A DNA stretch of 64,000 bases from Nostoc sp. DedSLP01 (GTDB lineage: Bacteria > Cyanobacteriota > Cyanobacteriia > Cyanobacteriales > Nostocaceae). The DNA lies in NCBI GenBank assembly GCA_034530875.2, contig JAVRCJ020000015.1, forward strand, positions 48,744 to 112,743, given 5' to 3'. Numbering within the stretch: the stretch's first letter is position 1; each line of letters begins with the position of its first letter. The position numbers and the translations under genes were made by a program. Shown here in pieces: positions 7,056 through 54,985 of the stretch. Under the pieces are notes generated by a model that had not been told where the DNA came from, ran no database searches, and worked only from the letters and a program-made list of their open reading frames with translations.

Positions 7056-7081
7056 GCTCTGTTTCCGGAAACCTTTTTTTG

Positions 7082-8203
7082 ATGCGGCAACCAGCACACG
7101 GGGGAAATTTAGCCTGGGCAGCAGCACTGGCTGGCTGTCCCCCTGATGCTATTCTGGATTTTTCTGCTAGCATTAGCCCCTTGGGACCGCCAAACAGCGC
7201 GATCGCTGCTATAGTGTCCCAAATCGGTAATATTAAGCACTATCCAGACCCGAGCTATAGTGAACTGAGACTAGCTCTCAGTCACTTCCATAAACTGCCG
7301 CCTGAGTGGATTCTGCCGGGTAATGGCTCAGCAGAATTACTTACTTTGATAGGTAAAGAATTATCAGAATTAGCGGCAACAATTTTAATCACTCCAGCCT
7401 TTGGCGACTACTACCGTACCTTGGCAGCGTGTAAAGCTAAAGTGCTGGAGTCTCCCTTGATAAGCGCTCAACAAGGAGCGATGAGTGCTGAGTTGGTAAT
7501 TTCACTTGGCGCTCAACATTTAACGCCCAGCGCTGACTGTGGACTACTGCTAAACAACCCGCATAATCCAACAGGTAAGCTATTTTCGCGGCAGTCGATT
7601 TTGCCCTACCTAGAGCAGTTTGCTTTGGTAGTGGTAGATGAAGCGTTTATGGATTTTGTGCCACCCGACGAAGACCAAAGCTTAATTCCGGTGGTGGAGA
7701 AATATGCGAATTTAGTAATATTGCGATCGCTGACCAAATTTTACAGTCTCCCAGGGCTGCGACTGGGATATGCGATCGCTCACCCCGACTGTTTAGCTAA
7801 ATGGCAGCTATGGCGCGACCCTTGGCCTGTAAACACCCTAGCGGCGGCGGCGGCAATGGCGGCACTCCAGGATAAAGAATTTCAACAGCAAACCTGGACA
7901 TGGCTACCACCTACACGAAACCAACTGTTTCAGGGTTTAGCTGAAATTCCAGGATTGCAACCCCAAGCAAGTGCTGTTAACTTTTTACTGGTTGAGTCTG
8001 AAAAATCTACTTCCGAGTTACAGCAAGAATTACTCAAGCACCATCAGATTTTAATCCGCGATTGCCTTAGCTTTAAAGAACTAGGCGATCGCTTTTTCCG
8101 GGTTGCTGTACGTCAAGAGTGCGATAATCAACGCCTTATCGCGGCGCTGAGTGGGGAGATGGGGAGTAGAGAGGGAGAGGGAGCAGGGGAGGCAGAGGAT
8201 TAA
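7082..8203 (+). CDS. cobD: Threonine-phosphate decarboxylase
   Basis: HGGN, DFSASISPLG, GNGSAEL, NPHNPTG, DEAFMDF and SLTKFYSLPGLRLG. Confidence 0.9.
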   Translation: MRQPAHGGNLAWAAALAGCPPDAILDFSASISPLGPPNSAIAAIVSQIGNIKHYPDPSYSELRLALSHFHKLPPEWILPGNGSAELLTLIGKELSELAATILITPAFGDYYRTLAACKAKVLESPLISAQQGAMSAELVISLGAQHLTPSADCGLLLNNPHNPTGKLFSRQSILPYLEQFALVVVDEAFMDFVPPDEDQSLIPVVEKYANLVILRSLTKFYSLPGLRLGYAIAHPDCLAKWQLWRDPWPVNTLAAAAAMAALQDKEFQQQTWTWLPPTRNQLFQGLAEIPGLQPQASAVNFLLVESEKSTSELQQELLKHHQILIRDCLSFKELGDRFFRVAVRQECDNQRLIAALSGEMGSREGEGAGEAED

Positions 8204-8258
8204 TAACTAATGACTAATGACTAATGACCAATGACCAATGACTAATGATTATTGACAA

Positions 8259-9713
8259 ATGACTATTGATTACGACGTCGTAATTATTGGTGGCAGTCTT
8301 GCAGGATACTACGCTGCCCTTGCTGCCGCGGAGCTACGTGCTACTGTTGCTTTGGTACAACCCAAACCAGACTACAGGTTTATTCATCATCACGCTTTAA
8401 GCGAAATTGGTAAACTAGCACAAAAATTGAGTAATACCACTGGTTTTGGTATTCATGCCACACACACTCAAACCTCAGAAAAATGCCATATATCTCTAGC
8501 ATGGCAGGAAGCGATGCTATATGCTCAAGGCGTCGCTTCAAATCTGGAAGAACAATATTCTCCCGCTATCCTAGCCGCGCTGGGAGTCGATATCATTGTT
8601 GGCGCTGGGCAATTCCAACCCTCGCCTCAACTGAGTTTTGTTGTTAACAATCGCTTATTACGCGCGCGTACCTATTTATTGGCTAATGGTTCGCGTCCGC
8701 AAATTCCAGAAATTGAGGGATTAGAAGCTACAGGCTATCTGACCTTAGCTAATATTTGGCAATCCTTAAATAAAGTGCCTTTACCCAAAAATTGGGTAAT
8801 TATTGGCGGAATTCCCCAAAGTATTGAAATCGCTCAAACTTTAGCGCGTTTTGGTTGCAGTGTGACCCTGGTAGCCAAGTCTCCTTACCTTTTACCTCAT
8901 ATTGACCCTGAAATAGCCATACTGCTGCAAGCACAGTTGGAAGTCGAAGGTGTGCGCGTCCTCACCGAAAAACCAGTGACTCAAGTCAGGCGAATTGATA
9001 ATAAAAAGTGGCTTCAGGCGGGAGATAAAGCTATTGAAACTGATGAAATTTTAGTGGCGACTGGACAACAGCCAAATCTTGAATCTCTAAATTTGGCAAC
9101 GGTAGGCGTGAAATGGCACGGACGTCGTTTGGTGGTGAATGAGAAACTACAAACTACTAATCACCGAATTTACGCTTGTGGTGATGTAATTGGTGGTTAC
9201 AGTTTTACGAATCTCGCTAATTATGAAGCAAAAATCGCTCTGAAAAATGCACTCTTTTTCCCAAGATTACGAGTAAATTACCGTTACATTCCTTGGGGAA
9301 TATTTTCAGTGCCGATGATGGCGCAAGTGGGTTTGACTGAAGCACAGGCAAAAAAACAATTTCGTCCAGACCGAGTTTTAGTTTTGCGACAGTATTTGAA
9401 AACAGTTGCAGCAGCACAACTCCAGGATGAAACCACTGGTATGTGTAAATTGATTGTGCTACGCAATGGCGAAATTTTGGGAGCTTCGATATTGGGTGCC
9501 GAAGCTGGAGAATTAATTAATCTGATTGCTTTGGCAATGTCGGAAAAAATTAAAGTTCAAGATTTAGCAAATTTCTCTCCTCTCTATCCCAGTTTCTCAG
9601 AGATTATCGAACAAATTGTCAGAGAGTGGAATAAACAAAATTTAAATAGCAATATTGCTTTGCAAGAATTTCTAGAAGGGTTCTTCCATTTTCGTCGCAA
9701 TTGGAATTTGTAA
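8259..9713 (+). CDS. Pyridine nucleotide-disulfide oxidoreductase family protein (MerA/Lpd-like, degenerate active site)
   Basis: YDVVIIGG, IYACGD, AQVGLTEAQA and ILGASILG; no CxxxxC motif. Confidence 0.8.
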   Translation: MTIDYDVVIIGGSLAGYYAALAAAELRATVALVQPKPDYRFIHHHALSEIGKLAQKLSNTTGFGIHATHTQTSEKCHISLAWQEAMLYAQGVASNLEEQYSPAILAALGVDIIVGAGQFQPSPQLSFVVNNRLLRARTYLLANGSRPQIPEIEGLEATGYLTLANIWQSLNKVPLPKNWVIIGGIPQSIEIAQTLARFGCSVTLVAKSPYLLPHIDPEIAILLQAQLEVEGVRVLTEKPVTQVRRIDNKKWLQAGDKAIETDEILVATGQQPNLESLNLATVGVKWHGRRLVVNEKLQTTNHRIYACGDVIGGYSFTNLANYEAKIALKNALFFPRLRVNYRYIPWGIFSVPMMAQVGLTEAQAKKQFRPDRVLVLRQYLKTVAAAQLQDETTGMCKLIVLRNGEILGASILGAEAGELINLIALAMSEKIKVQDLANFSPLYPSFSEIIEQIVREWNKQNLNSNIALQEFLEGFFHFRRNWNL

Positions 9714-9745
9714 ATTAGTCATTAGTCATTGGTGAGAATTTGTAA

Positions 9746-10468
9746 TTAATTAGCGATTATTAAAATCTGCATTATTAGCCATACTACTGCTGACGCTACT
9801 AATGGTACGCTGAGATTATCCGTGCCGTGCGGTGAGACTGCTTCAGCTAGGGTTGCAATAATAGCAGTTATTATGGCAATCAATAAAGCCCATCCTAAAC
9901 CCAAAGGTATTGCTAAGGGGCTAAGGGACGACCCAGGAAGTAACAACAGCACCAAGAAAATCGCTGCTGTACTCGCCACAAACATTGCTGCGGAACCCTC
10001 CCAGGAACGTACAGAATTTCCCACTTGGTATTGATGCTTCCCAAAGCGCCTACCAACTAAGGCCGCCAGTGCATCTCCCCAAGTCATCGCCATTATTCCA
10101 GCCACAGCAATTGGTACGCTATCCACCGGCCCATTTGGTCGCCACAGTAAACCAAATAACAGCGTTACGGAAATAGCAAAATAAACTGTACCAGGCGAAC
10201 TATCTTCACTATCCATTGCGCCAATGACCCGGTAGCGATAGAACAAGTAGTTGAGTCCGATAAACGTAGCAAAAGGTATAATTCCAACTTCCCAGCGATT
10301 AAACAGCAGCAGGACACCGAAAACCCACATCCCTGCGCCAATATGGATTACCTTGCGAGTTAAATCCGATTTCACGCCAAACAACCTACTTAGTCCCTCC
10401 CCAACAACCAGCAAACCAGTTGCGTACACATAAGAAACTACCAATCCGATAAAATCATTGTTAGTCAT
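9746..10468 (-). CDS. Phytol/dolichol kinase family membrane protein
   Basis: TRKVIHIG, WGDALAALVGRRFG, SWEGS and DNLSVP. Confidence 0.85.
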   Translation of the reverse strand: MTNNDFIGLVVSYVYATGLLVVGEGLSRLFGVKSDLTRKVIHIGAGMWVFGVLLLFNRWEVGIIPFATFIGLNYLFYRYRVIGAMDSEDSSPGTVYFAISVTLLFGLLWRPNGPVDSVPIAVAGIMAMTWGDALAALVGRRFGKHQYQVGNSVRSWEGSAAMFVASTAAIFLVLLLLPGSSLSPLAIPLGLGWALLIAIITAIIATLAEAVSPHGTDNLSVPLVASAVVWLIMQILIIAN

Positions 10469-10709
10469 TAGTTATCCCTCTTCTGTCACTTTCCGGAGAG
10501 TCAATCTCTGAAAGCTTTATCAGTCGGTCAATACAGGCTTTCCTATTAGAAAAAAATAGGTCTTGTATTTGTTATTAGGAAATAATCGAGCGATCGCTGG
10601 CTATACATAAGCTCTAGAATTCAGAAATGGCAAAAGTTTTCGGAGACTGACAGAAGAGGGTTATTAATTATTCTCCTCTGCCTACTCTCCCCCCTGCCCC
10701 TAAAGCCCA

Positions 10710-12470
10710 TCATTTCCCCCGATCGCTATTTCGTTTAAAATTCTTTTCTACTAACGAAACACTACCAATACCTTGGAGAATACCACGACCGATTAAACCT
10801 AAACCACGACCGATAATTTGGGTCAAAACAAACACAATCCCAGTACCTAAAAAAGCTAAGAGCGATTTTAAACGCGGTGCGATCGCATCACTAAATTCTA
10901 GAATCAATGTTACTAATAAAGGAATATTAGAAAGCTGTTCTAACTCCTGATGGCGCGGAGCATAAATTGAAGTTTTGGCAATACCACGAGGTACAATTAC
11001 AAATATTTCATAGCGGCTTTCAAAAACTGCTTTGGCTTCATTTATATAATTATTAAAACGATATTTCCAAGATAACTCGTTCCTAAATCGTTCAATCTCT
11101 CTTGTAGAAATCAATCTACTTCCATAAAAATTTTGCTTAATAAGTTCTACATCTCCCAAAGAATTTAATAATGGTTGTACTACCCCATTTGCTACCTGAA
11201 TTAATAAATTATCTAAAATCATTAATGCTTGGGATTGTGCTTCTGCACTGACGGCTGGATACAAAATATTATTAATATACAATTCTGTTTGAAATAAAAA
11301 ATAGCTATATAATTCTAAAGCTAAAGGAATCTTATTCAGAATCTCTGCCTTTACAATTTCAGATTCTTGCAGTAATAATTTAACAATTTCTCTATTTTTG
11401 TTTCCTATTCTTATTAAAGAAAATTTTCCAAAAAAATCTGTAATTGCTGCTTGCCATAAATCGCTAATTAAAGTATTTTTTACTTCTAGTAATTGATTAA
11501 TTTCCATTTGCGAAGCCCGCAATTCATCCAATTGTTGGGCTAACTTTTGGAGAATCAAATAAAGTAGTTCTCGTTTTTTTTGTTCGCGCAAAATATCAAT
11601 TTCTAACGGAATTTCTGTAATATTTTCTAAAGAAAATTGAAGTTTAGTAATGCAAGTCGCAAACAAAGCAGATTGTAACGCTGCCGTAGTTAGCAGAGGC
11701 GGTGGTGTTTGCGTTTGTTGAATGGCACTACTCGATGAAGCACTCACAGGCGGCTCATCAACAGGCGAAATATTTTCTTGTTCCTTTTCTTGCGCTGAAA
11801 CCAACAACCTATTGAGCAACCAACGAGCTGCTAACAGTTCTCGTCTTTGTCCAGCCAGAATTGCCCGATCTAATACTGGTATTCCAGGTATTTGTAATTG
11901 TGCCGTTACTGCTGCTAGGGTCGCATCAATGTAACCAATTCCTGACAAACGTAAATTATTTCGCAGTCTAAATAAAGGCAGTGGAGAGTAAGTAGAGACG
12001 CGATTCATCGCGTCTGTGGGGTTAGGAGTTATTATTGTTTGGCTTTGGTCAAACCAATGGTAACTACCAGCTGCAACTTGCTGCATGGCAGCAACTAGCT
12101 CAGAAACAGGCGCACCCTTGGGACAGTAGCCATTTATACCAATAGATTTGGCAGCTAATAATAATCCTTGCTCTTGAACAGAACTGAGGAGCAAGATTGG
12201 TAGGTTGGGATATAAGGCTTTTAACTGCTGACAGAATTGCAAACCTAGCTGCGGACTGCTAACACGACCGTTACCTAATTCCAAAACTACCAGATTTACT
12301 TCGTTAGGGTCTTTTTGGGCGATTTCTGCTAAAACCTGCAAGGCAGCAGTATCAGTTTCTACCACTGCTGTTACTCGCACCTCAGGAATTGCTTCTAAAG
12401 CTACCCGTAATCCCAAACGAAAAATTGGGTCTTGGTCTATAAGTAGTAATTTTAAGGGGCGATCGCTCAT
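10710..12470 (-). CDS. ycf55: Ycf55-like protein (receiver-like domain plus DUF3685)
   Basis: N-terminal LLLIDQDPIFRLGL; C-terminal STREIERFRNELSW and IGRGLGLIGRGILQG. Confidence 0.85.
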   Translation of the reverse strand: MSDRPLKLLLIDQDPIFRLGLRVALEAIPEVRVTAVVETDTAALQVLAEIAQKDPNEVNLVVLELGNGRVSSPQLGLQFCQQLKALYPNLPILLLSSVQEQGLLLAAKSIGINGYCPKGAPVSELVAAMQQVAAGSYHWFDQSQTIITPNPTDAMNRVSTYSPLPLFRLRNNLRLSGIGYIDATLAAVTAQLQIPGIPVLDRAILAGQRRELLAARWLLNRLLVSAQEKEQENISPVDEPPVSASSSSAIQQTQTPPPLLTTAALQSALFATCITKLQFSLENITEIPLEIDILREQKKRELLYLILQKLAQQLDELRASQMEINQLLEVKNTLISDLWQAAITDFFGKFSLIRIGNKNREIVKLLLQESEIVKAEILNKIPLALELYSYFLFQTELYINNILYPAVSAEAQSQALMILDNLLIQVANGVVQPLLNSLGDVELIKQNFYGSRLISTREIERFRNELSWKYRFNNYINEAKAVFESRYEIFVIVPRGIAKTSIYAPRHQELEQLSNIPLLVTLILEFSDAIAPRLKSLLAFLGTGIVFVLTQIIGRGLGLIGRGILQGIGSVSLVEKNFKRNSDRGK

Positions 12471-42506: not shown

Positions 42507-45482
42507 TTATACTTCTACATCAAGGATACATAAACGATCCTTGATTAATTGTTTGCCTAGATGCATTGGATATGGTGAGAGAATATTACCCATAGACCAA
42601 GCTGGCGAGAACCGTAAATAATGAGGTACTCGACAAAGAGCTTTGAGACTTTCTTCTGTTTTTTGAAAGTCTGGGTGAACGAAGAAGGGAACCATTTCTA
42701 ACATTTGTTGATGTTTGAATGCAATATTGGCACCATACTCATCATTTTGTGAATCAAGCATGTAGAGTTCGCGTGTTATCGAACTATCTTGTGCTTTTTG
42801 TGTTGTTGGTAATCTTCCGATGGAGAAATAATGTAGCAACTCAGGTACAGAAGTATCGTAAAAGCCGCTTAAACGAATTAGATCTCGTGCTGGAGAATTT
42901 TCATCCCAAGTTTGTCTATTGGTGATGTATTGGGTTGTCTCGTCGCCAGTGCGGAAGCGAATTACTGCAAGCAAATTGCTAAGATTTTTATGGTCACGAG
43001 GATATACACAAGCATGGCCTGGAACATGTTGAAAGTCTAAGACATCCCGCTTTGCAAGCAGATATTCATTTTTTAATTGAAACCAAGCTTGACCTTCATT
43101 TTCCTCACCACGCTCATTACGCCATACATCGGCTTCAATTAAAACAAGAGTCGGATGATCCTTTACTTGCGTTAGTACATCCGCCGCAAATTTTGCCAAA
43201 TCTATTCCTTTTAACTGAACTGTTTTAAGATTACTGCGATCGCGGCGTACCTGTGAGAAAATCTGTCCTAGTTCAATACCTGCTTGTGTGTAAGGAATCC
43301 AATTCTGACGATTAGGAAATAATACATCAACAGTACCAGTTGCCCGTAGACGAACAGCTAAGGCATAGTGAATATTATCTTGTCCTTGAGTAGCTTTTCG
43401 GCGACAAAGGGCAATTACATCTAACTTTTGTGCAATTTCTTTGGGTATCGCTGCTTGCTTGTAGACTTCTGAAGGTATTCCATAAAGCGCCCCAATTTGG
43501 CGTAGGGTTACATCTAATACAGCATTGAGAATACGTCCTTCTGTCTTCTTGCTGTAAGATGATGTGTCTGTGCTTTCGTCTTCTTTGTCAGCTGATTTTG
43601 GTTTAACCGTAACCGTTTGCACCATTTGAGAGCTAATTTTTTCTAACACACAAGCTTCACGAACTATTCTATAAATGCTTTGTTTGGGATGAACGCCTTT
43701 CTTTTTACTTTGCCCAATTTCAATAATTGTAAAACAGTAAGGCTTAGTATTAGAGTCAATAGAAGCAATAACTTTCTGCTTCAAAAAGTTACGCCATACA
43801 TCGAGTTTGATTTGATGCTGCTTGCGGATTTGGTTATCAAATTCTTGACCATCTTTAGGTGCAAGTCCGGCTGTGTCAAGAGGTTTCAAAAGATTCGGAT
43901 CGTCAATGCGTATAAATGATATTTTGACATGTTCAGGAAAATTTTCTTTTTCATTTAATAAGAACGCATCACGCAAGCTTGGGTATATCACATCATAAGT
44001 ATTTCGTTCATACCAAAGAATAAAAAGATGCATAGGTTTTCCTTGTAGCGATCGTTCAATCGCATCAGCAATGATCTTTTGTCTTTCTTGACGATGTTCA
44101 TCTATACGTCGCTTAATTTCTTCTTCACTCAACTTTTGTTTTTGTTGTTTTGTGATTGTTAAAGCCTTAGATACGTATTCGTAATCGCGCATTGCCAAAG
44201 GTGTTTTTTGACCAGATGGAGCAGGAATATCACACTGCATTTGAATATCTGGTATTAATACACCATCTAGCAGATTTAATACTTGAGCAATAATATTGCC
44301 CCTTTCTTGTAAACTAAATCCAGTTTTAATGCTATGTCCTCTTTTATGCTTTTCGTGTTTATACTTGTAGCCTTCAGCATGAATTAAATAATATTCATCT
44401 TTTTTCCAGTCTGACTTATTATCTAAATTGCCGTATTGAGAGGGATTTTGAAAAATATTTTCAGTAGTTTCAAGTAGACGCGCTTTAAATGCAGTTAGTA
44501 AATTAGATAACTGGTATTTCCACGGTTGACTATCTTCTTTTCCACTATTTTCAATAGTAAGACGTATAAGTGTTGAATCTATTTCATAACCATTTATACG
44601 TTCCTCATTCATCCCCATTAGTACAGAAATATCACGATTGTAATTAGTTTCAATTAATGGTTCATGAGCATATCTTTGACAACTTAAATGTATAAAAATC
44701 CACGGTTTTAGTTTGCTATTGTTATTAAATCGCCCTGATTGAGTTTGAAGGCGAAAATCTAGACGATAAACAAAGTAACCTTCCCTTTCTTTGTCATTAT
44801 CGTCTATGTATAGCGTCCGAAATGGTTGACTAACTAGGAAAAGTCCTGTACGACCATAACCATCACCTTGTGCTTTTCGCCACTGGATTTCTTGCTCTCT
44901 TGCTCCAGAGTGGATGACACATTTTTTTCCATGCAGTAACGTTGCTATAAAACTGGGAATCGCTTGAAAACTAATTCCTTTTTCGGCATTGATGTCTTGA
45001 ATAAGCTTTTTTGTACTAATAGGTTGCCAATCCCAATTATCGGGAATCATTGCTATGTCTTCGAGAAAGCGATCGCAAACACTCTTCACTTGATCTGCTT
45101 TCCCTTGAGCATAAAATTGCTCTGTCCATTCCTGCGCCCAAATTATCACTAACTCATGTATTTGCTCAGATGTTGGAACTCGCAGTGGATTTTCAATTGT
45201 TCCCACAGCTAAAGCTCGATAATCGCCTTTATTAAAGGATTCAAAACCATGTGTCAATGTTGGTGTACAGGCAAGCAATCCATTGTTTAATTGTCGATAT
45301 GGTATCCAAACCTTTTTTTTGCGATTAGGTGAAAGAACCTCTTCCATTTTGTTGCTAAAATTAGCAACAATTTCTGCAAATGGAAATTCAAGTAACACAA
45401 TTTCTAAATCTCTAAGAGCGTCTTCTGCAAGATCCATTCTGGCAGGTAAGAGAATAGTAGATTGCACGTCTTTTTTAACCAT
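42507..45482 (-). CDS. pPIWI-RE protein (PIWI/Argonaute superfamily; N-terminal X, MID and RNase H-like regions)
   Basis: ~990 aa and third gene after the nuclease and helicase. MID-like YRIVREAC..ISSQMV and RILNAVLDVTLRQIG; R/E motif VIRFRTGDETTQY; C-terminal PYPMHL; AAGGA RBS before ATG 45482. Confidence 0.8.
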   Translation of the reverse strand: MVKKDVQSTILLPARMDLAEDALRDLEIVLLEFPFAEIVANFSNKMEEVLSPNRKKKVWIPYRQLNNGLLACTPTLTHGFESFNKGDYRALAVGTIENPLRVPTSEQIHELVIIWAQEWTEQFYAQGKADQVKSVCDRFLEDIAMIPDNWDWQPISTKKLIQDINAEKGISFQAIPSFIATLLHGKKCVIHSGAREQEIQWRKAQGDGYGRTGLFLVSQPFRTLYIDDNDKEREGYFVYRLDFRLQTQSGRFNNNSKLKPWIFIHLSCQRYAHEPLIETNYNRDISVLMGMNEERINGYEIDSTLIRLTIENSGKEDSQPWKYQLSNLLTAFKARLLETTENIFQNPSQYGNLDNKSDWKKDEYYLIHAEGYKYKHEKHKRGHSIKTGFSLQERGNIIAQVLNLLDGVLIPDIQMQCDIPAPSGQKTPLAMRDYEYVSKALTITKQQKQKLSEEEIKRRIDEHRQERQKIIADAIERSLQGKPMHLFILWYERNTYDVIYPSLRDAFLLNEKENFPEHVKISFIRIDDPNLLKPLDTAGLAPKDGQEFDNQIRKQHQIKLDVWRNFLKQKVIASIDSNTKPYCFTIIEIGQSKKKGVHPKQSIYRIVREACVLEKISSQMVQTVTVKPKSADKEDESTDTSSYSKKTEGRILNAVLDVTLRQIGALYGIPSEVYKQAAIPKEIAQKLDVIALCRRKATQGQDNIHYALAVRLRATGTVDVLFPNRQNWIPYTQAGIELGQIFSQVRRDRSNLKTVQLKGIDLAKFAADVLTQVKDHPTLVLIEADVWRNERGEENEGQAWFQLKNEYLLAKRDVLDFQHVPGHACVYPRDHKNLSNLLAVIRFRTGDETTQYITNRQTWDENSPARDLIRLSGFYDTSVPELLHYFSIGRLPTTQKAQDSSITRELYMLDSQNDEYGANIAFKHQQMLEMVPFFVHPDFQKTEESLKALCRVPHYLRFSPAWSMGNILSPYPMHLGKQLIKDRLCILDVEV

Positions 45483-45506
45483 CGTCAATTCCTTTAAACA
45501 AAAAAG

Positions 45507-48500
45507 TTACCAATACAAACCGTCGATATTTTCTAGTGCATCGGCTAGAGGTTTGTAAAGCGCATTTCCGACTGTGTTTTCCTCGCTGGCGTAATCGCAA
45601 ATTCTTAAAAGCATGGCAACCAAAAGGCTTGTTTCCTCTGTGTCAACTTCAGAAAGTTCTGGATTAGCTTTCCTCGCAGCACTTATGGGCGCCCAAGCTG
45701 CATCGACAAAATAACCGTGAAATGGTACACCTCCACGCAAAAGACGACCAACAGCTTGAATAACTAACCCAGCAGTAGTTGCAGCGAGGTCAAATCGGGG
45801 AGAAGCTAATAATTCCTCATTATTACGTAGAGTTTTGTAATAAGAACGTTGCTCAACCGATCGCCAGTAACGCGCTGCTAATTGACGCACCTTCTCTGCA
45901 CGTTGTACAATACCATCCCCCTGTTGCCATGCGATAAAGTCTGCTTTATCCGCCCAGTCTAAAGCGCGACGGTTCATTTCTTGGGCGATCGCTTGTGTAT
46001 CATGTGGATGTGGATATGGACGAGTCAAAAAGTAAACTGCACCAAATGCAGCTTTACCATTTGCATTCAAAATATTAAAGCCCCGCCCGATGGCATTCAT
46101 CGGAGCAACAAGAATTTTTCCTTGAATTTGCCCAAAAGTTTCAATATCTGCACGATTGAGCGCACCTTTATCAGTTAATTTGGTAAATCTTTCTACTTCA
46201 TCAAAGTCATTTTCGGTATATGTCTCTATATTGTCAGGAACTAAGTGATAAATAAAGTCCTGCATACTTGACCAGCAATTACGAATTTCATTTGCTGCCC
46301 AACGAGCTTGATCGTAAGAGTTTACAAGTAACAAAAGGCGATCGCGATCGCTCCACTGGTTATTTAAATCATTTTCGCCAAGGCGCTTTAATTCCTTGAG
46401 TTCTTGCCCTAAATGACCAGTACCGCTACTACCAACAAGCGATCGCGCTATTTCTTGAAATAATCCCATTTTTTGGCGTTCGGGGCTACCAGAAATCCGG
46501 AGGGGTTTGTTCTTTTGGGTGATTTGCGGCAGAAATTTAAAGGAACTTTGAGCGATCGCTTCTCTCGCCTCTGGTTCTGGCATTAACACACCCTGCGGCT
46601 TACCAACGTGAAAACTGGTAGAATCTGGTAAGTAAGATGTTCCAGAAAGTGCTAGCACATTGGGGCCACGTTGACCGTTAAAATCTGTTAATAAACGATG
46701 AAAGTTTAAAATATAGCAGCGTCCAATATTGGTGTAGGCGAACAATGTCAGGGCATTATTGTTGGCATTTTTGTCGTCATTATTTTCTCTAGAGTAATAA
46801 GTGCCGAACTGCCGTCCCGTAGGAGGCAATGGCAAAATATTTAACATTGCAGCAGGCATTCGCTGATGAGGTGAATCATCATTGATTGATGTTGGTCGAT
46901 TTTGCCATTCATAGAAGACAATTCGAGTATGTCGATCTAATAAAGCGATCGTCAGGGCAAATTGTAGACGATAAGCCAAGGTTTCAAGAGTGTCTACTGG
47001 GTCTTGCTCATCTTTGTTGTAAGTTGATTGTGGCGAACTTTGATTACGATTCTCTAGTTCTGCTCGTAGTCGCGCCAAACGCCGTTCTGTATTTCGGAAA
47101 AATTGGATAATCCAGGCTCTACAAGCCAGGTAGATATTAGCATCTGAAGCACTTTCTCCAGTACTGTTAATTTCTTGCATCAGACGCGCCAGGCGAAAGA
47201 CTGGATCTCGGTTTGGGTTAGCTGGAGGCTGCATCCGTAAAGGATCATCGTCGTTGAGTAGTGCATCAAAACAGCGCACAATTGGCTTTATCAGCCGCGC
47301 ATTTGCTTTTGAAACTGCCTCAGCTGTCTGTGAAGGTTCAAATTCTTCCAATCCAGCAAGACGACGCGCAAATTTGTACAGCAGCGAGTTAGGGGTAAAG
47401 TAACCTCGTTTCACCCATTTTCGGAGAAATTGATGTCCAACCTGTTTATCTAATAGAGTCAATATTGCTGTAATAGCTTTTTGTGCATCACGTTGTGCGC
47501 CCGTCCATCGCTGTGTTGTTGGAGGCATAACCCTGTTAGTTATGGAAAATTGCTCTGTTTTCACGCCAATATCATCAAAAACGCCGTTATTACCACCGTC
47601 AGTCAAAACAACTTCTTCAGCGTAGGTATCATCAAACCACTTGATAACTGTCTCTACTTCATCAAAGACCACAAAATCTGATTGTTCGTTGACGAGTTCA
47701 CCGATTTTGAGCGGACGTAACTCTAAATGACGCGGTAATCCCGCCATTGCCATTGCACCGGGAGTTGTAATCCAAATACGGGCATTTGGCATATCTCGAT
47801 AAACTTGTTGGGATGGGCATTTATCAAAGAAGGGACACAAATAAAATGAACCCCGGCCTTTACGTCGCTTTTTGCGATCGCTTTTAGGCATTTCTTGGAG
47901 AGAATGACAAGGTTCAGTTCCCGGTATCAGTGGTTTGCCGTCTAAAAGTTGAATAAAATCACGCGCTTTTAGCTGACCTTGGAGAGGACAAGCTGTGCCT
48001 AACCAACGTTCACCCCAGTGGGGCTGACCGCGTTGTTGATGTTCCTGATAATCTTTTGAGGCAGAGAAACTTTGAAGATGTGCATCGCGTTTACTGCGTC
48101 CCAAGATTGGCACCGCTACCGGATCATCATTTTCTGGATCGTTACAAAACCACCAGTTAATTTGGTTGGCTAGTTTAATCGCTGATTGCACATCACTAAC
48201 AACTAACGTGATGCGGCGATCGCAATCATGCCGCAAAATGTTAACACTCAACAACTGCGAAACCGTGGTTTTTCCAGAAGCAACCATGCCTGCAATGTTG
48301 GTAAAGCCATCTAACTCAAGAATTTGCTCTTGTTGCAAAAACAGTGTTCCGTCTTCGTCAACTCTGTGAAAGTTAATTTTGCCAAAGCGAGCAACCCAAT
48401 GTCCTTTGGCAGTTTCATCCCAACCATATTGTTGTGCTAATGCTGACTCTCGCCGATCGATCCATGCTGCATCTTGCTCTAAATCTGAAATGCGAAGTGA

Positions 48501-49121
48501 AAACGAACTACGAGAAACAGGTGTGGTAAACCAAGGTGAACGCTGTACCTGTGCATTTTGTATCTGCTGCTGCTTAAATCTGACTGGTACTATAACTGTC
48601 TGTTCTCCTGTCTTGGCCTCAAACTGATAAGTGGTTTCGGCTTCTACTTGTTGAACTTTGCGAAGCCGGAAAATTAAATTAGCTGTTAGGCATCTTTCGT
48701 ACACATCTTGATTAGCTAAATGCCGGAGATTTTTGGCAGCATTAATAATATATTTCTCCCAGTTTTGCGGAGTGAAGTCGCCATAGTTACGCCGATCTAA
48801 CGGTATATCTAGGTAAACACGCAGTGCGTTTAACCAAGCAAAACGAGCAGAAAATGGAACTATTTGGCGAGTATTAGCGATCGCTCGACGTTCCATCTGG
48901 TTCAAGTTCTGTAAACGTGGATGTCTCAAAGGCATTCCACTCAAAATTGCCCAAGGTGCGGTAACTGGCTCATCATCAAGTTGCAAATATTCCATCAAAG
49001 CAAAGGCAAGCTCTATCTGAAGCAACAATTCAGCTTGAGTACGCTTCAAACCTGCTTCCTTCAACTGTTCGAGACGCTCTTGAAACTCTCTTGGTGGGTC
49101 AAATAAAGTCATCTGGCTCAT
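45507..49121 (-). CDS. DinG-like SF2 helicase of the pPIWI-RE operon
   Basis: GMVASGKTT, Cys cluster (ACPL, EPCH, CPFFDKC), VFDEVE, LSGTS, LLVNSY, GRGFNI, QAVGRLLRGG and VDAAWAP. Confidence 0.85.
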   Translation of the reverse strand: MSQMTLFDPPREFQERLEQLKEAGLKRTQAELLLQIELAFALMEYLQLDDEPVTAPWAILSGMPLRHPRLQNLNQMERRAIANTRQIVPFSARFAWLNALRVYLDIPLDRRNYGDFTPQNWEKYIINAAKNLRHLANQDVYERCLTANLIFRLRKVQQVEAETTYQFEAKTGEQTVIVPVRFKQQQIQNAQVQRSPWFTTPVSRSSFSLRISDLEQDAAWIDRRESALAQQYGWDETAKGHWVARFGKINFHRVDEDGTLFLQQEQILELDGFTNIAGMVASGKTTVSQLLSVNILRHDCDRRITLVVSDVQSAIKLANQINWWFCNDPENDDPVAVPILGRSKRDAHLQSFSASKDYQEHQQRGQPHWGERWLGTACPLQGQLKARDFIQLLDGKPLIPGTEPCHSLQEMPKSDRKKRRKGRGSFYLCPFFDKCPSQQVYRDMPNARIWITTPGAMAMAGLPRHLELRPLKIGELVNEQSDFVVFDEVETVIKWFDDTYAEEVVLTDGGNNGVFDDIGVKTEQFSITNRVMPPTTQRWTGAQRDAQKAITAILTLLDKQVGHQFLRKWVKRGYFTPNSLLYKFARRLAGLEEFEPSQTAEAVSKANARLIKPIVRCFDALLNDDDPLRMQPPANPNRDPVFRLARLMQEINSTGESASDANIYLACRAWIIQFFRNTERRLARLRAELENRNQSSPQSTYNKDEQDPVDTLETLAYRLQFALTIALLDRHTRIVFYEWQNRPTSINDDSPHQRMPAAMLNILPLPPTGRQFGTYYSRENNDDKNANNNALTLFAYTNIGRCYILNFHRLLTDFNGQRGPNVLALSGTSYLPDSTSFHVGKPQGVLMPEPEAREAIAQSSFKFLPQITQKNKPLRISGSPERQKMGLFQEIARSLVGSSGTGHLGQELKELKRLGENDLNNQWSDRDRLLLLVNSYDQARWAANEIRNCWSSMQDFIYHLVPDNIETYTENDFDEVERFTKLTDKGALNRADIETFGQIQGKILVAPMNAIGRGFNILNANGKAAFGAVYFLTRPYPHPHDTQAIAQEMNRRALDWADKADFIAWQQGDGIVQRAEKVRQLAARYWRSVEQRSYYKTLRNNEELLASPRFDLAATTAGLVIQAVGRLLRGGVPFHGYFVDAAWAPISAARKANPELSEVDTEETSLLVAMLLRICDYASEENTVGNALYKPLADALENIDGLYW

Positions 49122-49123
49122 GG

Positions 49124-50260
49124 CTATTTTCCTTGCTTCAAAGACTCAATCTTATTGATAACCCGCTGCTCAAATGCAGTATCACTCACAAGATGTGTAC
49201 TATTAGGCAGCTTTTTTGCCTGTTCGCGGAGAATTTCGATATAGTCCTCTCGTTGTTGTAGGCGCTCATCAGGAATGACATAAAAGCTTTCGTTATAACG
49301 CAGGTTGCCCTCACTAAATAGAGGTGTCAGCTTTGGTGCTAATTTGTAGGGATTGTGGTAATCTTTAACATCCACAGCCCAGGTTGATTTGTCACAGAAG
49401 CATAGCTGTAAGTCATAACGATCAATGCCGGGGTAAATATGGATACTACAAATTTGTTCTGGATATTGCTTTTGTAGTTCTTCCAAAGTATGAAATAAGC
49501 GCATTTCGGGTATACCTGGTAAACAAACACGTAAGTGAATGCCTAGCTTCAGACGACGCAGGCCATGTTGCCAAGTAATTTTTTTAACATAGAGTAAATC
49601 TTGACGATGGTCGTTGCAAGCACTGGGTTTAACACCACGTAACTTGCCATATTTTTTAAATAAAGGGCCGCAGCGATCGCAATTCCAGCAAACCTCGTCT
49701 TGTTCGCACTCTTCGTAAAGTTCACCAACTTCTTCGATGTGAATATATCGTGTCTTGAAAAATACCTTGCGAAGCTGCGCCGTAGTTGTGTACGGTTTCT
49801 CAATCAAAAATCGACGCAATAAAACATATTCCCTTTGAATCCGCTCAGGCTGGCTATCGTTGTTGTAGAGTTCTTGCAAACTTTCTAAAATTTTCTTAAA
49901 AGAAAAATTCTCTATTGCCATCTGCTTAGTTGCAGCAGTGGCAAACTCAGGTATTTTGCCTTGTTCAAGCAGTTCCTCATATAAGTATCGGCTTGCTTCT
50001 TCGCTTAACCCCCCTTCATAGAGCAAACCAAAATCTGAATCAAACTCTTTTGGTAATAAATGCTGTGGATACCAAGATTTCACGGGTTTTTCGAGTAACG
50101 CTAAAAGACCTGTTAAAGTACGCGGATAATTTACAGCCGTTACCTCTAGAGCTAGTTTATTCAGAGCATGGCAAAGCAGTTGCGGATATGGATACTTGCC
50201 GTTTCGACGGACAAACTCTGCTAAACCAAGGATGAGGCTATTAAATTCATTATTTTTCAT
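49124..50260 (-). CDS. PD-(D/E)xK restriction-endonuclease-fold protein of the pPIWI-RE operon
   Basis: CDRCG..C..H Zn-like motif, PGIPE, YPGIDRYDL and WAVDVKDY; GAAGGA RBS before ATG 50260. Alternative starts at 50308 and 50332. Confidence 0.8.
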   Translation of the reverse strand: MKNNEFNSLILGLAEFVRRNGKYPYPQLLCHALNKLALEVTAVNYPRTLTGLLALLEKPVKSWYPQHLLPKEFDSDFGLLYEGGLSEEASRYLYEELLEQGKIPEFATAATKQMAIENFSFKKILESLQELYNNDSQPERIQREYVLLRRFLIEKPYTTTAQLRKVFFKTRYIHIEEVGELYEECEQDEVCWNCDRCGPLFKKYGKLRGVKPSACNDHRQDLLYVKKITWQHGLRRLKLGIHLRVCLPGIPEMRLFHTLEELQKQYPEQICSIHIYPGIDRYDLQLCFCDKSTWAVDVKDYHNPYKLAPKLTPLFSEGNLRYNESFYVIPDERLQQREDYIEILREQAKKLPNSTHLVSDTAFEQRVINKIESLKQGK

Positions 50261-50400
50261 GAGAAGTAATCCTTCATTCAAAGGATTTTTTACAACACGA
50301 TTTTTCATTTGTGATACATTTGTTTCATCCACCTTACAGGATTATTTATTTTGTGTCAACTAAGACGCTATTGATTTTTTTGTGAGACAGAGGCAAAGGA

Positions 50401-50766
50401 ATGGAAAGTTATCTAGATATCGAACGATTAGCAAGTCTAGTCCGCAAAAAGCGCGGTAGCAGAGGATTGCGGGAAACGTCAGTGGAAATTGGTAATGTTA
50501 GTCCATCCACTCTTTCAAGGGTAGAGAGCGGTAAAATGCCGGATATGGAAACTTTTCTAGCACTTTGTAACTGGCTACAAGTACCACCTGCTGAGTTATT
50601 TAGAACTGCACAAGAAAATCAACTGGATACACCAGAAGCGATCGCCATTCAACTACGCGCTGACAAAAAGCTTGATCCTGCGATCGCTAATGCTTTAGCA
50701 TCCTTAGTCAAAGCAGCATATCGTGACTTATCACAAAATGATGGCGAATTGAAGCAAGATCCCTAA
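50401..50766 (+). CDS. XRE-family HTH regulator
   Basis: GLRETSVEIGNVSPSTLSRVESGKMPD, with an AAGGA RBS. Confidence 0.9.
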   Translation: MESYLDIERLASLVRKKRGSRGLRETSVEIGNVSPSTLSRVESGKMPDMETFLALCNWLQVPPAELFRTAQENQLDTPEAIAIQLRADKKLDPAIANALASLVKAAYRDLSQNDGELKQDP

Positions 50767-50770
50767 AGAT

Positions 50771-51316
50771 ATGTCACTAATTGAAAGTTTATCGCCTGAA
50801 TTTAGGCAACGCTGTGAGGCGATCGCAACTGAACAACGAAGCCTGCTTGGAGTGCAGGCGTTTGAAGCGTTACCCGCAAACACTTTGGCAGCCAAGTTAG
50901 GAGCAACACTGCTAACACCCGATCAAATTCAAAATTTCGAGCCAGACCAAGTAGCGTTATTACTTGCTAGCGATGGGTGGTCAGCAGGCATTATACGCCA
51001 TAACCCACTGTGGATCGTATACAATCCCCGTCATGCACCTACACGATATGAATCAAATGTAATGCATGAAATAGCTCATGTGTTGCTCAATCATCAGTCT
51101 GTTGGCTTTGATCCTGTAACCGGATTACCAAAACGTAAACAGCACAACGAAGATCAAGCAACTTTTCTTGGAGGATGTCTTCAAATTCCTAAACGTGGTT
51201 TACTATGGGCGACACAACGAAAGATGTTGTTACCTCAAATTGCAGCACATTTTGGTGCTAGTGAAGCGATGGTGTTGTTTCGCAGCAATGTAACAAATGT
51301 CTCTGTCAAATGCTAA
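50771..51316 (+). CDS. ImmA/IrrE-family Zn metallopeptidase
   Basis: IVYNP...RYESNVMHEIAHV (HExxH), EDQATFLGGCLQIP, and C-terminal IAAHFGAS. Confidence 0.88.
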   Translation: MSLIESLSPEFRQRCEAIATEQRSLLGVQAFEALPANTLAAKLGATLLTPDQIQNFEPDQVALLLASDGWSAGIIRHNPLWIVYNPRHAPTRYESNVMHEIAHVLLNHQSVGFDPVTGLPKRKQHNEDQATFLGGCLQIPKRGLLWATQRKMLLPQIAAHFGASEAMVLFRSNVTNVSVKC

Positions 51317-51360
51317 TGTTTCCAAATATCTGCATCTATCTATAGGAATCATATTTGATA

Positions 51361-52446
51361 TCAATTCCGGTTGCACCGGAATGATAAAGCCTTTGTTTTA
51401 GGCCACCAGTGAAAACATGCGAACGCTTGAATTAGAGACGGCTGTTTGAGAAGAATTTGACAGCGTTGGAACAGCACTTGTTCTAGCTCATCAAGATTTT
51501 TAAATGAACGATTGGCTATTGGTTCATTAACTAGAGGCCACAGACGCTCGGCAGGCTGTAATTCAGGAGAGTGAGAAGGTATAAATTCCAGATGTAAGCC
51601 GAATGGTATTTTGACTTGTTCGCTGGTATGCCAACCAGCTTGGTCTATAGTCAAAATAATGTGTTTATCTTTACCAACTGCAAATTCTCTAGCAAAGTCT
51701 GCTAAAACTTGATTAAAAAGCTCAATGTTTACTTTTGGCAGAATCCAAAAATAAGTTTCCCCAGTTTGTGGATGTACAAAACCATACAGCCATAACCATT
51801 GATAGCGCCAGTGGACGTTGGCAATTGGTTGCTCTGCACGGGCTACCCAAACCCGTCGAATTATCGGCTTTAGTCCAAGACGATGTTCGTCCATTCCCCA
51901 AACTTCTACTGTTGCTTGTGGGTATTCTCGTCTAATTTGTTGCACTTGTTGATTGAGTTTTTTTTCCAGGCTTGTTGAACATCTGGGTCGGCTAAATCGT
52001 GTTCTGGGCGGGGCACTCGCAAGGGAAATTCAAGTGAGCGTAGGTAGTCCCAACCTCGCTGTATACTCACCGGGCGCTCAAGAAGATTACTCATCCAATC
52101 TGCAACCTTACGACTATTCCACAATCCTCCATCTGCGGGTGGAGTTTGTAATGGGGAGCAACAACTGTGCTTGCTCTATTTCCGTCAGCATTGGTTTGCC
52201 GCCTGGATGTTCATGACGCAAGTCTTTCATGCCATCAATGCCCAATTCATTGTAACGACGAACCAAACGATATATCGAGTTACGGCACTAACCTGTGACT
52301 GCTGCTACATCTTCTGTTTGTCTTCCTTGAGCCAGCAACCAAATAATTTGGTAACGTGTCCGTTCTATTGGGTCAGATGCTTGACGGTAAAAGTGAAACA
52401 ATTCTTTTACACTTTGGTGAGCTTCTAAATTTAAGCGTTTAGGCAT
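51361..52446 (-). pseudogene. IS630 transposase pseudogene
   Basis: Starts MPKRLNLEAH at 52446; in-frame TAG at 52288-52290 and an extra frameshift near 52153-52157. Confidence 0.88.
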
Positions 52447-52512
52447 AAATTCTCACTTTGCACCCTTGAGACTCCCAAAGCGATCGTATCATTCCGACGC
52501 AGACGGAATCGA
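51361..52512 (-). mobile_element. IS630-family insertion sequence, 1152 bp, transposase inactivated
   Basis: 26-bp TIRs (51361-51386 and 52487-52512, 21/26 match) flanked by TA on both sides. DDE motifs DEHRLG, DQAGWH and SPELQPAERLW. A8 slippery site at 51958-51965. Confidence 0.92.
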
Positions 52513-52530
52513 TATTACAGATTTCTAAGC

Positions 52531-52752
52531 TTAACTTTTTCGCTTTTGTTCCAACTTCTTAAGGTGTTCTTGCATTGCTACTTCCATAATGGTGAGGTTC
52601 TCAGGTGTGTCTGGAATAGGGTATAAATCAGTATCTTCAGAACTCGCTTCTAAGCGATCGGCAAGTTTGTAAAATGCTTCGTCATCATTTCGATGTAACA
52701 GAACATAAGCTCGCAGTTGGGCAATGCTCATAGTGTGAAAATCCGGTTTCAT
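52531..52752 (-). CDS. DUF6887-like small protein (putative antitoxin)
   Basis: KPDFHTMSIAQLRAYVLLHRNDDEAF. Confidence 0.7.
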   Translation of the reverse strand: MKPDFHTMSIAQLRAYVLLHRNDDEAFYKLADRLEASSEDTDLYPIPDTPENLTIMEVAMQEHLKKLEQKRKS

Positions 52753-52800
52753 CTAAACCTTGATTTGCCATCTAAGGGCTAGAATCAATTATATAAAAAT

Positions 52801-52823
52801 ATGGATATATTTTATATATCCAT
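52801..52823. terminator. Hairpin downstream of the Schlafen-like gene
   Basis: ATGGATATAT-TTT-ATATATCCAT. Confidence 0.5.
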
Positions 52824-52846
52824 TCTGTACAAAACTCAAAAATTGC

Positions 52847-54232
52847 TTATCGAACTTTTTGCCAAGCTGAGGTAGCAGTTCTAGTTCCTGGTACTAATTC
52901 TATTAACCCCCTATCTCTAAGTCTATAAAAGGCTGCTTTGATAGTACTTTCAGAGGCTACACCTGTAATTTCTCTTGCAATTTTGTTAGTTATAGTATTG
53001 TTTTCAGATAAGTATTGCATGATTGCTGATTCAATCGAAGCAAGAGGTTCATGTTTAATATAAACTATAACTGAATTTTCCAATTCTTTAATAATAGGAG
53101 GCTTAAGCCTCAGACGACTCATAGCTTCAAAAGCTGTGTTTAGACCCTCACCCACGTCTTTATTAGGTGCATTGGGAAATTTGTTGATAAGGCGTACTAT
53201 CGTACCGTTCCTTGCATACTGCTCTCTCAAAATATTGGTTATTGTGATGTGTCCAGGCAATCTACCTGGGCTTTCAATTTCCACACGATTATCAAAGATG
53301 CGAATTTGTACATCTTTCAAAATACTATAGTCTCTATGTAATACTGCATTCGTAATGATTTCGTGCAGCGTTTCTTCAGGATATTCTATCTGTTCTAATC
53401 TTCCGTCATCAAGTTTGGGGATTTCTTCAATTATCTCCTTAGTCTTTTGTACAGCCTCAGAAATTTGATTATATAACCAGCCTTCAATAGTTATTGGATC
53501 GAATGCAAGATTTTCTCTTCGACCTTCTTCATCAGATGTTTTGTACCTATAGATTTTCACACCACATCTTTTTGGAAGTAAAGCCTGTGGTTCTTCAGAG
53601 AAAATAAGAATACCAGCAACAGTTGGTTTTCCATTAATAATCAACTGTTGCTTTTTTAACCACTGTTCTGGCTCTCCTGTTGGTATAATCTGAAGCATAA
53701 AATCAATAATAGGAATAGAGTTAGTAATAATTTCTATATCAGCATTAACTGTGGATTTTTCAAAGGACTCTATACCTTTATCAAGTCTCAGGCGTGCAAG
53801 CTTCTCCTCTGTATCCTGCGGTAAATTTTGTGCCCCACGTCGGATATAAGGAACGCCATCCGAAGCATTAACAATCTCTCGGCTCTTATGAATGACTACT
53901 TGAAGCACTAGACCACTACAACCATCACAAAATAAGAAAATATAGCTATAGTATTGACCTAAAGGGAATAGTTCTTCAAAAACTTGTAAATGTGCATTTG
54001 CATTTTCTTGATCTGCAAAGCCACGCCAAGTTCGATGCTTTACGCCATCAATTTTATCCTCATCAATTCCAATGTAAAGCTCCCCGCCACTAGTGTTGGC
54101 AAATGCGGATATAGAGCGAGTTAGCTTAGCTGGCTTTATATCTATCGACTTCAAGTCCAGAAAGTGACTTTCCTCAAATGACAAAATTTGATCGAGCTGC
54201 TCAGGTGTAATTTTTTCGACTTGAATTGGCAT
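52847..54232 (-). CDS. Schlafen/AlbA_2 plus HATPase_c_4 plus C-terminal wHTH protein
   Basis: EESHFLDLK, AFANTSGGELYIGIDE, EIITNAVLHRDY, IESPG, and an HTH at the C-terminus. Confidence 0.85.
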   Translation of the reverse strand: MPIQVEKITPEQLDQILSFEESHFLDLKSIDIKPAKLTRSISAFANTSGGELYIGIDEDKIDGVKHRTWRGFADQENANAHLQVFEELFPLGQYYSYIFLFCDGCSGLVLQVVIHKSREIVNASDGVPYIRRGAQNLPQDTEEKLARLRLDKGIESFEKSTVNADIEIITNSIPIIDFMLQIIPTGEPEQWLKKQQLIINGKPTVAGILIFSEEPQALLPKRCGVKIYRYKTSDEEGRRENLAFDPITIEGWLYNQISEAVQKTKEIIEEIPKLDDGRLEQIEYPEETLHEIITNAVLHRDYSILKDVQIRIFDNRVEIESPGRLPGHITITNILREQYARNGTIVRLINKFPNAPNKDVGEGLNTAFEAMSRLRLKPPIIKELENSVIVYIKHEPLASIESAIMQYLSENNTITNKIAREITGVASESTIKAAFYRLRDRGLIELVPGTRTATSAWQKVR

Positions 54233-54303
54233 AAGAATATTCTTGCATTTTCTATAGTTTTAAAGCTTTTTTTAAAAGTTACAAAAGGTATTTATAATTC
54301 ATC

Positions 54304-54659
54304 TCACAAAGGCAGCTTTGCAATCCGATCGCTCCACTCCTCGGCACTGGATATAGCCCAAATCATCACCAGTTCTTCGATAACGACTTCAACTGGTAGC
54401 CTTTGGGAAACAATGATAACTCCTGTACTATGATTGCTGGTGATGAACTGGGCAAATTCTAATGGCATTGTTTTACGGTCGTGGCTGACAAGAATACGTC
54501 CCTGCTGTGCTGCGATCGCCAATACCTCAGAGTCTTTTCTTTTACACCTTCTAATCCAGCAGCCAAGGCGGTTTGGAAGTCAATGCTGGGTTCTCGTCGC
54601 AAAACTCCTGTGACGATCGCCTGATTCAAATCAGCATCGGCTTGGTAGCTAATATTCAC
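54304..54659 (-). pseudogene. DUF5615 PIN-like toxin, frameshifted
   Basis: YQADADLN...GLEGVK then DSEVLAIAAQQGRILVSHD; a 5-bp duplication (CTTTT x2 at 54534-54543) splits the frame. Confidence 0.85.
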
Positions 54660-54985
54660 GATTCTACTTGCTGTCTTGCTGTCTTAGCTGCCATCAGCTT
54701 GTTATACAAAGCAGGATCGGTGGTTTCTAGTGGTTGAGGCATAGTATCAAATGCTGCTTCCTCAGCTTCTAAATAAGTATCAATGTCAGCACGATTGGCT
54801 AGATAAAACGCGATCGCTCCATAAACTTGTTCAAGTGTCAGCAACGGAAAAGAATGAACAATGCTTTCAGGTGATAATCCTTTTCGGAAAGCATAAACAA
54901 TCGAGTCCAAAGAAATCCGAGTTCCCGCAACCCAATAAGCATCTTGACGATATTCTACGTAAGACTTAGCTGTTACAACTGGCAT
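54656..54985 (-). CDS. DUF433 family antitoxin
   Basis: VAGTRISLDSIV...SFPLLTLEQVYGAIAFY, with a GTGA overlap with the PIN gene. Confidence 0.88.
   Translation of the reverse strand: MPVVTAKSYVEYRQDAYWVAGTRISLDSIVYAFRKGLSPESIVHSFPLLTLEQVYGAIAFYLANRADIDTYLEAEEAAFDTMPQPLETTDPALYNKLMAAKTARQQVES

Follow-up and report, generated by a model that had tools for sequence, protein, structure and literature searches.

The locus described here raises the question of whether a pair of genes for an XRE-type repressor and an M78 zinc metallopeptidase, transcribed away from a PIWI-RE operon, acts as a switch for that operon and, if so, to what signal the switch responds. In the window, the 64,000-nucleotide stretch of the Nostoc sp. 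DedSLP01 genome that was analysed, an ORF scan finds five intact genes, three on the minus strand (REase, DinG helicase and PIWI-RE) and two on the plus strand (XRE repressor and M78 peptidase), each with a single match in the genome. The first operon gene (49124..50260, minus strand) encodes a 378-aa REase-fold nuclease with domain Y and a zinc ribbon (PF18154 above the Pfam cut-off; PF18156 at E 4e-5, slightly below it; PADLOC PprRE), in which the cysteines are conserved and a catalytic-type D..DxK motif is present. The second (45507..49121, minus strand) encodes a DinG-type helicase of 1204 aa with an N-terminal domain Z (PF18155; PADLOC PprDinG, 4.9e-120), Walker A at residue 281 and DEVE at 487, and the third (42507..45488, minus strand) the 993-aa PIWI-RE protein (PF13032 and PF13111; PADLOC PprPIWI, 6.5e-43). 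Gene content, order and tight spacing (2 nt between REase and DinG, 18 nt between DinG and PIWI-RE) are those of the pPIWI-RE island, a three-gene system predicted in 2013 (Burroughs, Iyer, and Aravind, 2013, PMC3702460; PprRE/PprDinG/PprPIWI in PADLOC). HTH fusions to the REase are described there (LexA, TetR, MerR and one more type), whereas the REase of the window carries no HTH fusion. The same source reports stand-alone PIWI-RE proteins with a rare fused zincin, and its main text, in which no word begins with "peptidase", gives no separate divergent pair of XRE and peptidase genes.

The REase start was placed by homologue alignment at the ATG at 50260, with AAGGA just 5' of it. A GTG at 50332, which opens the longest ORF, was rejected because it overlaps a conserved -10 box and because the homologues begin at the position of 50260. 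REase and repressor genes therefore stand head-to-head across exactly 140 bp, and the peptidase gene follows that of the repressor after 4 nt; the ORFs and Pfam matches thus confirm the arrangement of HTH, HExxH peptidase and nuclease genes from which the earlier note had started. The repressor (50401..50766, plus strand; 121 aa) matches PF01381 (HTH_3) above the Pfam cut-off and is modelled as an HTH (residues 7-66), a flexible linker and two C-terminal helices (78-87 and 93-116). L85 and R86, the dipeptide that ends the first of these helices in the model, are nearly invariant in 31 repressor sequences, and the best fold match of the protein is DdrO, at E 0.008 only. The CapH cut, F82|R83, falls within the first C-terminal-domain helix (Lau et al., 2022, 10.1101/2022.04.27.489752), and the cut sites of DdrO (L106|R107) and ImmR (F95|M96) are likewise given in the C-terminal domain (PMC12828697). 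As modelled, the repressor is built like CapH and DdrO and has L-R at the corresponding place, and by analogy a cut would most likely fall at L85|R86.

The peptidase (50771..51316, plus strand; 181 aa; PF06114) matches Peptidase_M78 at E 1.7e-15 (57.4 bits vs a cut-off of 22) and carries HEIAH at residues 99-103; H99, E100, H103 and a downstream E127 are invariant in the homologue alignment, which places it in the M78 family. Its model (pLDDT 95.7) matches the N-terminal part of IrrE (3dti) and of CapP (7t5t), and a search of the ESM Atlas gave M78 clusters only. Comparison with five close loci gave dN/dS values of 0.04-0.07 (repressor) and 0.12-0.26 (peptidase), which points to purifying selection on both. 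Prediction of a repressor-peptidase complex scored 0.56 against 0.00 for the best control, with at least 52% of contacts agreeing between runs and a partner pLDDT of at least 65. The mark applied is passed by 116 of 157 solved pairs and by 2 of 215 mismatched pairs, yet scores of 0.60 or less include only 18 of the 157 solved pairs and both passing mismatches, so that the score of 0.56 leans slightly towards contact and may mirror resemblance to solved relatives. One natural repressor-peptidase fusion, P0056, occurs among the homologues.

Upstream of the operon, a predicted leftward promoter consists of a -35 box TTGACA (50354..50359, minus strand) and a -10 box TAAGGT (50331..50336, minus strand). 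Three nucleotides downstream of the -10 box, over the expected operon start site, lies an imperfect palindrome, TGATACA-TT-TGTTTCA (50312..50327), and a further half-site, TGAGACA (50383..50389, plus strand; direct repeat D3), belongs to a conserved block TGA.ACA located 11 nt 5' of the repressor start, where it is a candidate autoregulatory element. A stock promoter scan made no call at the intergenic region of the window, and the promoter derives from an alignment of 35 distinct intergenic regions (42 before removal of duplicates). The leftward promoter pattern TTGACR-N17/18-TANNNT occurs in 23 of the 35 (shuffle mean 0.15), the palindrome YGAWACA-N1/2-YGTYTCR, with one mismatch allowed, in 24 (shuffle mean 0.2), and at least one GAWACA half-site in all of them. 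This shuffle test is optimistic because the patterns came from the same regions, and they were therefore applied unchanged to 19 held-out metagenome regions, where the palindrome was found in 13 and the promoter in 11 (shuffle means ∼0.1); without two that duplicate earlier regions the counts are 12/17 and 11/17, and two regions are too short for either motif. In a subclade of 12 of the 35 regions (L010, L012-L022) the promoter pattern has no match, and the palindrome matches sit before the repressor gene. The exact operator pattern occurs at a single site in the 8.57 Mb genome. From its position and conservation we infer that the palindrome at 50312-50327 is a candidate operator bound by the repressor.

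The earlier note had proposed that the five genes form a unit, and their distribution shows that they are co-inherited as one. Among 301 family genomes, a search with the REase found matches in 49 and listed 54 places, 28 of which, including the window, are close (at least 55% identity). The pair or a remnant of it lies on the divergent side in 27 of these 28, with a whole repressor in 25 and a C-terminal repressor remnant in two, and is missing from L026. The reverse search with the peptidase returned 42 distinct close places, namely those 27 and 15 others; a whole repressor was found in none of the 13 of these that were fetched, and PIWI-RE remnants, three of them very short, in 10. In the wider order (351 genomes), 13 new close peptidase loci came from six other families; 12 of them have the repressor and a divergent REase or DinG gene, and the thirteenth is a broken remnant (L111 and L117, split by a contig end, were counted as one locus). 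Metagenomes gave 28 loci, five of them too short to judge, and the layout is present in 17 of the 23 that are informative, with truncated or frameshifted peptidases accounting for five of the six misses. Where all genes were readable, at 28 loci, the regulator and REase trees have 15 of 25 splits in common, and the 12 strong regulator splits are all compatible with the 14 strong REase splits, an agreement that linked genes would give with or without regulation and that comes from kin loci which are not independent. Flanking genes vary widely between loci with the same divergent layout, and the five genes therefore move together.

Co-inheritance and a conserved palindrome could also be read in another way, in which the pair, a toxin-antitoxin-like passenger, regulates only itself, the palindrome being a variant LexA box or an autoregulatory site, and the operon is under host LexA or constitutive; of the alternatives weighed here this is considered the least probable, and distinctly unlikely. 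XRE/COG2856 pairs are indeed treated as toxin-antitoxin modules in parts of the literature, decayed loci often retain the peptidase, and the 14-bp core of the palindrome, GATACATTTGTTTC, has the same central nine bases as a listed Nostoc LexA box. The cyanobacterial LexA consensus RGTACNNNDGTWCB (PMC3091678), however, has no exact match in any of the 35 regions and a one-mismatch match in two (shuffle mean 1.1), and the palindrome departs from the LexA box symmetrically, at each of the two conserved G/C positions. It also lies over the operon start, ∼75 bp from the repressor gene, and the motif changes along with the repressor: intergenic DNA of a second PIWI-RE lineage (see below) has its own conserved GTTTG/CAAAC palindrome, together with a leftward TTGACA, and TGCAAC-N3-GTTGCA is the palindrome found with a 36%-identical repressor next to a ubiquitin-like operon. 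Furthermore, no intact close pair was found apart from PIWI-RE, the sole exception to this association being a lone peptidase at 50% identity.

It is proposed instead, as the best and a rather probable explanation, that a repressor-cleavage switch of the ImmA/ImmR type gates the PIWI-RE operon, with DNA damage acting at most as an indirect trigger. The operon would be off until induced, the five genes forming one cassette. The XRE protein would dimerize through its two C-terminal helices and bind TGA(T/A)ACA-NN-TGTTTCA over the start of the operon promoter, and the half-site before its own gene would probably mediate autoregulation. Once activated, the zinc peptidase would cut the repressor monomer, most likely between L85 and R86, so that the dimer could not re-form, and loss of the repressor would allow transcription of REase, DinG and PIWI-RE.

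Three known switches can be compared with the pair. With CapH/CapP (Lau et al., 2022; Calloji et al., 2026, 10.64898/2026.05.16.725639) it shares XRE and M78 genes located upstream of, and divergent from, an immune operon, a two-helix repressor C-terminus, a hydrophobic-Arg dipeptide at the predicted cut and R92, which corresponds to R90 of CapP; the pair also falls within the loose working definition of CapH/CapP, PF01381 and PF06114 genes upstream and divergent from an operon (10.1101/2023.09.26.559546). CapP, in contrast, has ∼290 aa, and the window peptidase, at 181 aa, has neither its GAF domain nor its cysteine switch. The targets listed for CapH/CapP in the available text are CBASS, DISARM, DUF2188/DUF3892 and ubiquitin-like (Bil, Bub) operons, with PIWI-RE not among them. 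The ImmR/ImmA switch of ICEBs1 is alike in its small GAF-less M78 peptidase (ImmA, 169 aa), its XRE repressor and its divergent promoter, and the window likewise has a GAF-less peptidase gene, predicted to be co-transcribed with that of a two-domain XRE repressor. The likeness to ImmA considered here is one of size and layout, and ImmR/ImmA governs the excision of a mobile element, whereas an integrase is not a regular neighbour of the window cassette among the neighbours listed. DdrO/IrrE of Deinococcus supplies the best fold matches for both proteins, and DdrO is also cut at L|R, but IrrE has a GAF domain and a genome-wide regulon, whereas the exact operator pattern of the window occurs once in its genome. 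The CapH/CapP-like switch put forward in the earlier note is thus upheld in its divergent XRE/M78 layout, its operator-placed palindrome and its L-R dipeptide, and not in the GAF domain, the cysteine switch or the PADLOC profiles.

The absence of the GAF domain bears most directly on the nature of the trigger. The peptidase model finishes in helices at residue 175 of 181; of 120 homologues listed, 119 have 155-198 aa and the other is an HTH-peptidase fusion, and longer GAF-bearing forms were absent from 8000 scored candidates, a count that speaks only faintly against their existence. The same lines of evidence bear on a version of the switch in which the peptidase itself senses ssDNA, as do CapP and IrrE. 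R92, at the position of CapP R90 and IrrE R85, is invariant in 47 sequences, and since R90 of CapP is reported to bind ssDNA, some nucleic-acid binding by the window peptidase may be envisaged; the nearest solved folds are moreover IrrE and CapP, and pairs related to that of the window are found opposite CBASS and ubiquitin-like operons. Against direct sensing, the ssDNA site of the relatives is described as lying between the peptidase and GAF domains, and the missing GAF domain carries four of the five CapP residues reported as tested for ssDNA binding. According to the available text of PMC12828697, ssDNA is not bound by GAF-less IrrE and does not stimulate ImmA or Rir, both of which lack GAF. 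The cysteine-switch loop is described in only some CapP homologues; the corresponding loop of the window peptidase has no Cys, and one is present in just 8 of 119 homologues, its position varying among the rows shown. Finally, the PADLOC capP profile gives E 0.03 with the peptidase, and the capH profile no match with the repressor. Direct sensing is accordingly rated as improbable, and induction directly by ssDNA, which the earlier note had envisaged, finds no backing in this peptidase; DNA damage could still act on it indirectly, as it does on ImmA via RecA.

Because the peptidase is of ImmA size, without GAF domain or cysteine switch, its activation is probably indirect rather than through ssDNA binding of its own, and the signal that induces the operon probably differs from that of the best-known relatives. 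ImmA is activated via a RecA-dependent response or by RapI (PMC11841131), and by analogy RecA-dependent DNA damage is the leading candidate trigger, though it is put at somewhat less than an even chance. A phage or host partner protein and zinc release under oxidative stress are considered about equally plausible with each other and well behind it, and direct action of ssDNA stands a little lower again. A search of viral contigs with one query returned no relative of the peptidase.

A further possibility keeps operator and repressor as proposed and assigns another role to the M78 protein, as a non-cleaving antirepressor acting on repressor monomers (Rir/Crh type) or as a low-level constitutive protease that sets the amount of repressor, for example delaying the nuclease after transfer to a new host. 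The precedent is Rir, which is GAF-less and has the active-site motif and yet, as reported in PMC12828697, does not cleave the repressor; the window peptidase has no visible sensor domain, and the cassette is found next to many different flanking genes, so that it moves between sites. Invariance of all four catalytic and zinc residues, and conservation of L85-R86 where the cut is expected, argue for cleavage, and this possibility is regarded as unlikely, about on a par with direct ssDNA sensing or marginally below it.

Peptidase relatives at 26-39% identity, accompanied by a related repressor, face multi-ubiquitin/E2/E1-JAB operons, a CD-NTase gene (L116) and an E2-E1-JAB gene (L094), and seven of eight distant pair homologues fetched in the family sample face ubiquitin-like operons; ubiquitin-like and CBASS contexts are also given for CapH/CapP-like genes by Lau et al. 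(2022). On the tree, the peptidase of the window lineage groups with the relatives on the ubiquitin/CBASS side. Such neighbours and this grouping thus indicate that the pair is a portable switch adopted by the PIWI-RE lineage of the window. The peptidases of L066, L114, L115 and L116, encoded next to ubiquitin-like operons or a CD-NTase gene, are GAF-less and share a loop Cys ∼14-16 residues past HExxH, near the CapP switch position. The lone peptidase homologue at 50% identity (L217:230-1170) comes right after a CRISPR-like repeat array and has no repressor gene beside it.

The pair marks only some PIWI-RE lineages, and most of the operons examined are without any. The remaining REase places in the family, 26 in number, are distant; 22 were fetched, and 19 of these have no pair. 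At several of the pairless loci the REase carries a fused HTH (MerR on L037, others by sequence likeness), in line with the fusions described in PMC3702460. In a second lineage (L030:258-1126, L031:3573-4440 and L033:3161-4113) a different XRE and M78 pair is found in the same divergent layout, with 29% identity to the window pair over 69 residues and a GAF-less peptidase of ∼180 aa. PADLOC matches it to capH at 1.8e-13 and to capP at 1.8e-34, the latter over profile positions 5-153 of 242 only. Sister loci of this lineage, at 68-73% REase identity, have no pair. A common origin of the two regulated lineages was rejected on the peptidase tree (p-AU 1.4e-5), and the same test on a quick REase tree was not significant (p-AU 0.09). 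Given the unlike pairs, this rejection on the peptidase tree and the scarcity of pairs elsewhere, at least two separate recruitments are therefore likely, both within cyanobacteria among the loci sampled. A cross-phylum scan of 80 loci, made with a single second-lineage protein as query and skewed to cyanobacteria and Actinomycetota to the exclusion of Bacillota and Pseudomonadota, found 78 loci without the pair, the only bearers being two duplicates of L030 and L031. The link between PIWI-RE neighbourhoods and the pair that the earlier note anticipated consequently holds for close loci and fails for most distant and cross-phylum ones. Upstream of a PprPDDEXK-REase-DinG-PIWI-RE operon in actinobacteria (L134-L197), a divergent Ser/Thr kinase gene is present at 59 of 62 loci, possibly another regulator in the same position, and at an acidobacterial PIWI-RE locus (L137:3611-5095) an XRE HTH is fused to the REase.

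What the operon does once induced is a separate matter. The switch may be real and the operon a DNA-damage or replication-stress module, concerned with R-loop processing, rather than an anti-phage system, a reading of the output that is compatible with the repressor-cleavage switch and that, while still unlikely, is the least improbable of the alternatives. A PIWI-RE knockout in Pseudomonas stutzeri is reported to be more sensitive to ciprofloxacin (PMC10991935, the only paper with experimental work on a PIWI-RE protein found in the literature searched), and the DinG of the pPIWI-RE island has been tied to R-loops (PMC3702460). A patchy distribution, neighbours that include AIPR-family and PLD-helicase genes, and frequent decay argue against a stress module: among 20 wide loci whose REase is full-length, all five ORFs are whole in 14, and DinG or PIWI-RE is broken in six.

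Both parts, the PIWI-RE island and the XRE/M78 switch, are of known kinds, and their coupling is the new element. No report of this coupling was found in the literature searched, in which coverage is thin for subscription papers, the Burroughs neighbourhood supplement and the Corbett-lab supplements; PIWI and Argonaute are not mentioned in the available part of the CapK/CapS paper (PMC13373217). Were the lineage held off by a repressor with its operator, native assays in normal growth would miss PIWI-RE activity, and loss of a single small gene or changes to 16 bp should turn the operon on. CapH/CapP-like control would thereby be extended to an Argonaute-related system, and the question would be raised of what turns on M78 peptidases that are linked to immunity yet lack a GAF sensor.

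A branch of the relatives has a modified repressor. In L105-L107, L201, L205, L212 and L213 (families f6 and f11 and metagenomes) the last ∼34 residues of the repressor are MazE-like (E 0.005 against the C-terminus of the E. coli protein), and between the repressor and peptidase genes there is a mazF (L105:2046-2832, L106:654-1485, L107:2053-2848); L210 has the same mazF, and the genome of the window has no match to the MazE-like tail. The tail puts an antitoxin on the predicted cleavage product, and mazF with the MazE tail may be no more than a tolerated toxin-antitoxin insertion. A combined reading, speculative and given a low probability, is that PIWI-RE is toxic enough to need induction and has twice recruited protease switches without an ssDNA sensor. 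The GAF-less peptidase would read a signal undescribed for immune regulators (a phage protein, a RecA filament or its own loaded helicase-PIWI complex), and in the MazE-tail/mazF branch one cut would both induce a guided nuclease operon and destabilize the antitoxin, so that activation of PIWI-RE would be coupled to dormancy or abortive infection.

Several loci have been rearranged. At seven (L051:5984-8752, L053, L055, L056, L060, L059:4863-7778 and L061) a PLD-SF2 helicase gene occupies the former place of REase, promoter and repressor N-terminus. The replacing helicases are of two kinds, 29% identical, and five of the loci, with at least three different flanking genes, have a common breakpoint near repressor codon 57. 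In L239 (11410-14319) the helicase gene of the second kind lies downstream of the peptidase gene. In L257 (DinG start, 6136-11991) DinG and PIWI-RE form one ORF of 1951 aa with ∼10% of each missing, either a deletion fusion or an assembly error.

At the window locus itself, the island-flanking genes fbp and mfd are distant from each other or on separate contigs in 30 of 30 genus relatives, and there is therefore no simple empty insertion site among them; partial duplication of the 3' end of mfd in several relatives suggests an insertion hotspot. The stretch between the IS630 element and mfd (52531-54985) has Pfam matches to DUF6887, an AlbA_2/HATPase protein and a DUF5615-like/DUF433 pair. The IS630 element (51358-52515) begins 41 bp past the peptidase stop, has its transposase in two frames and is bounded by 29-nt inverted repeats (51358-51386 and 52487-52515).
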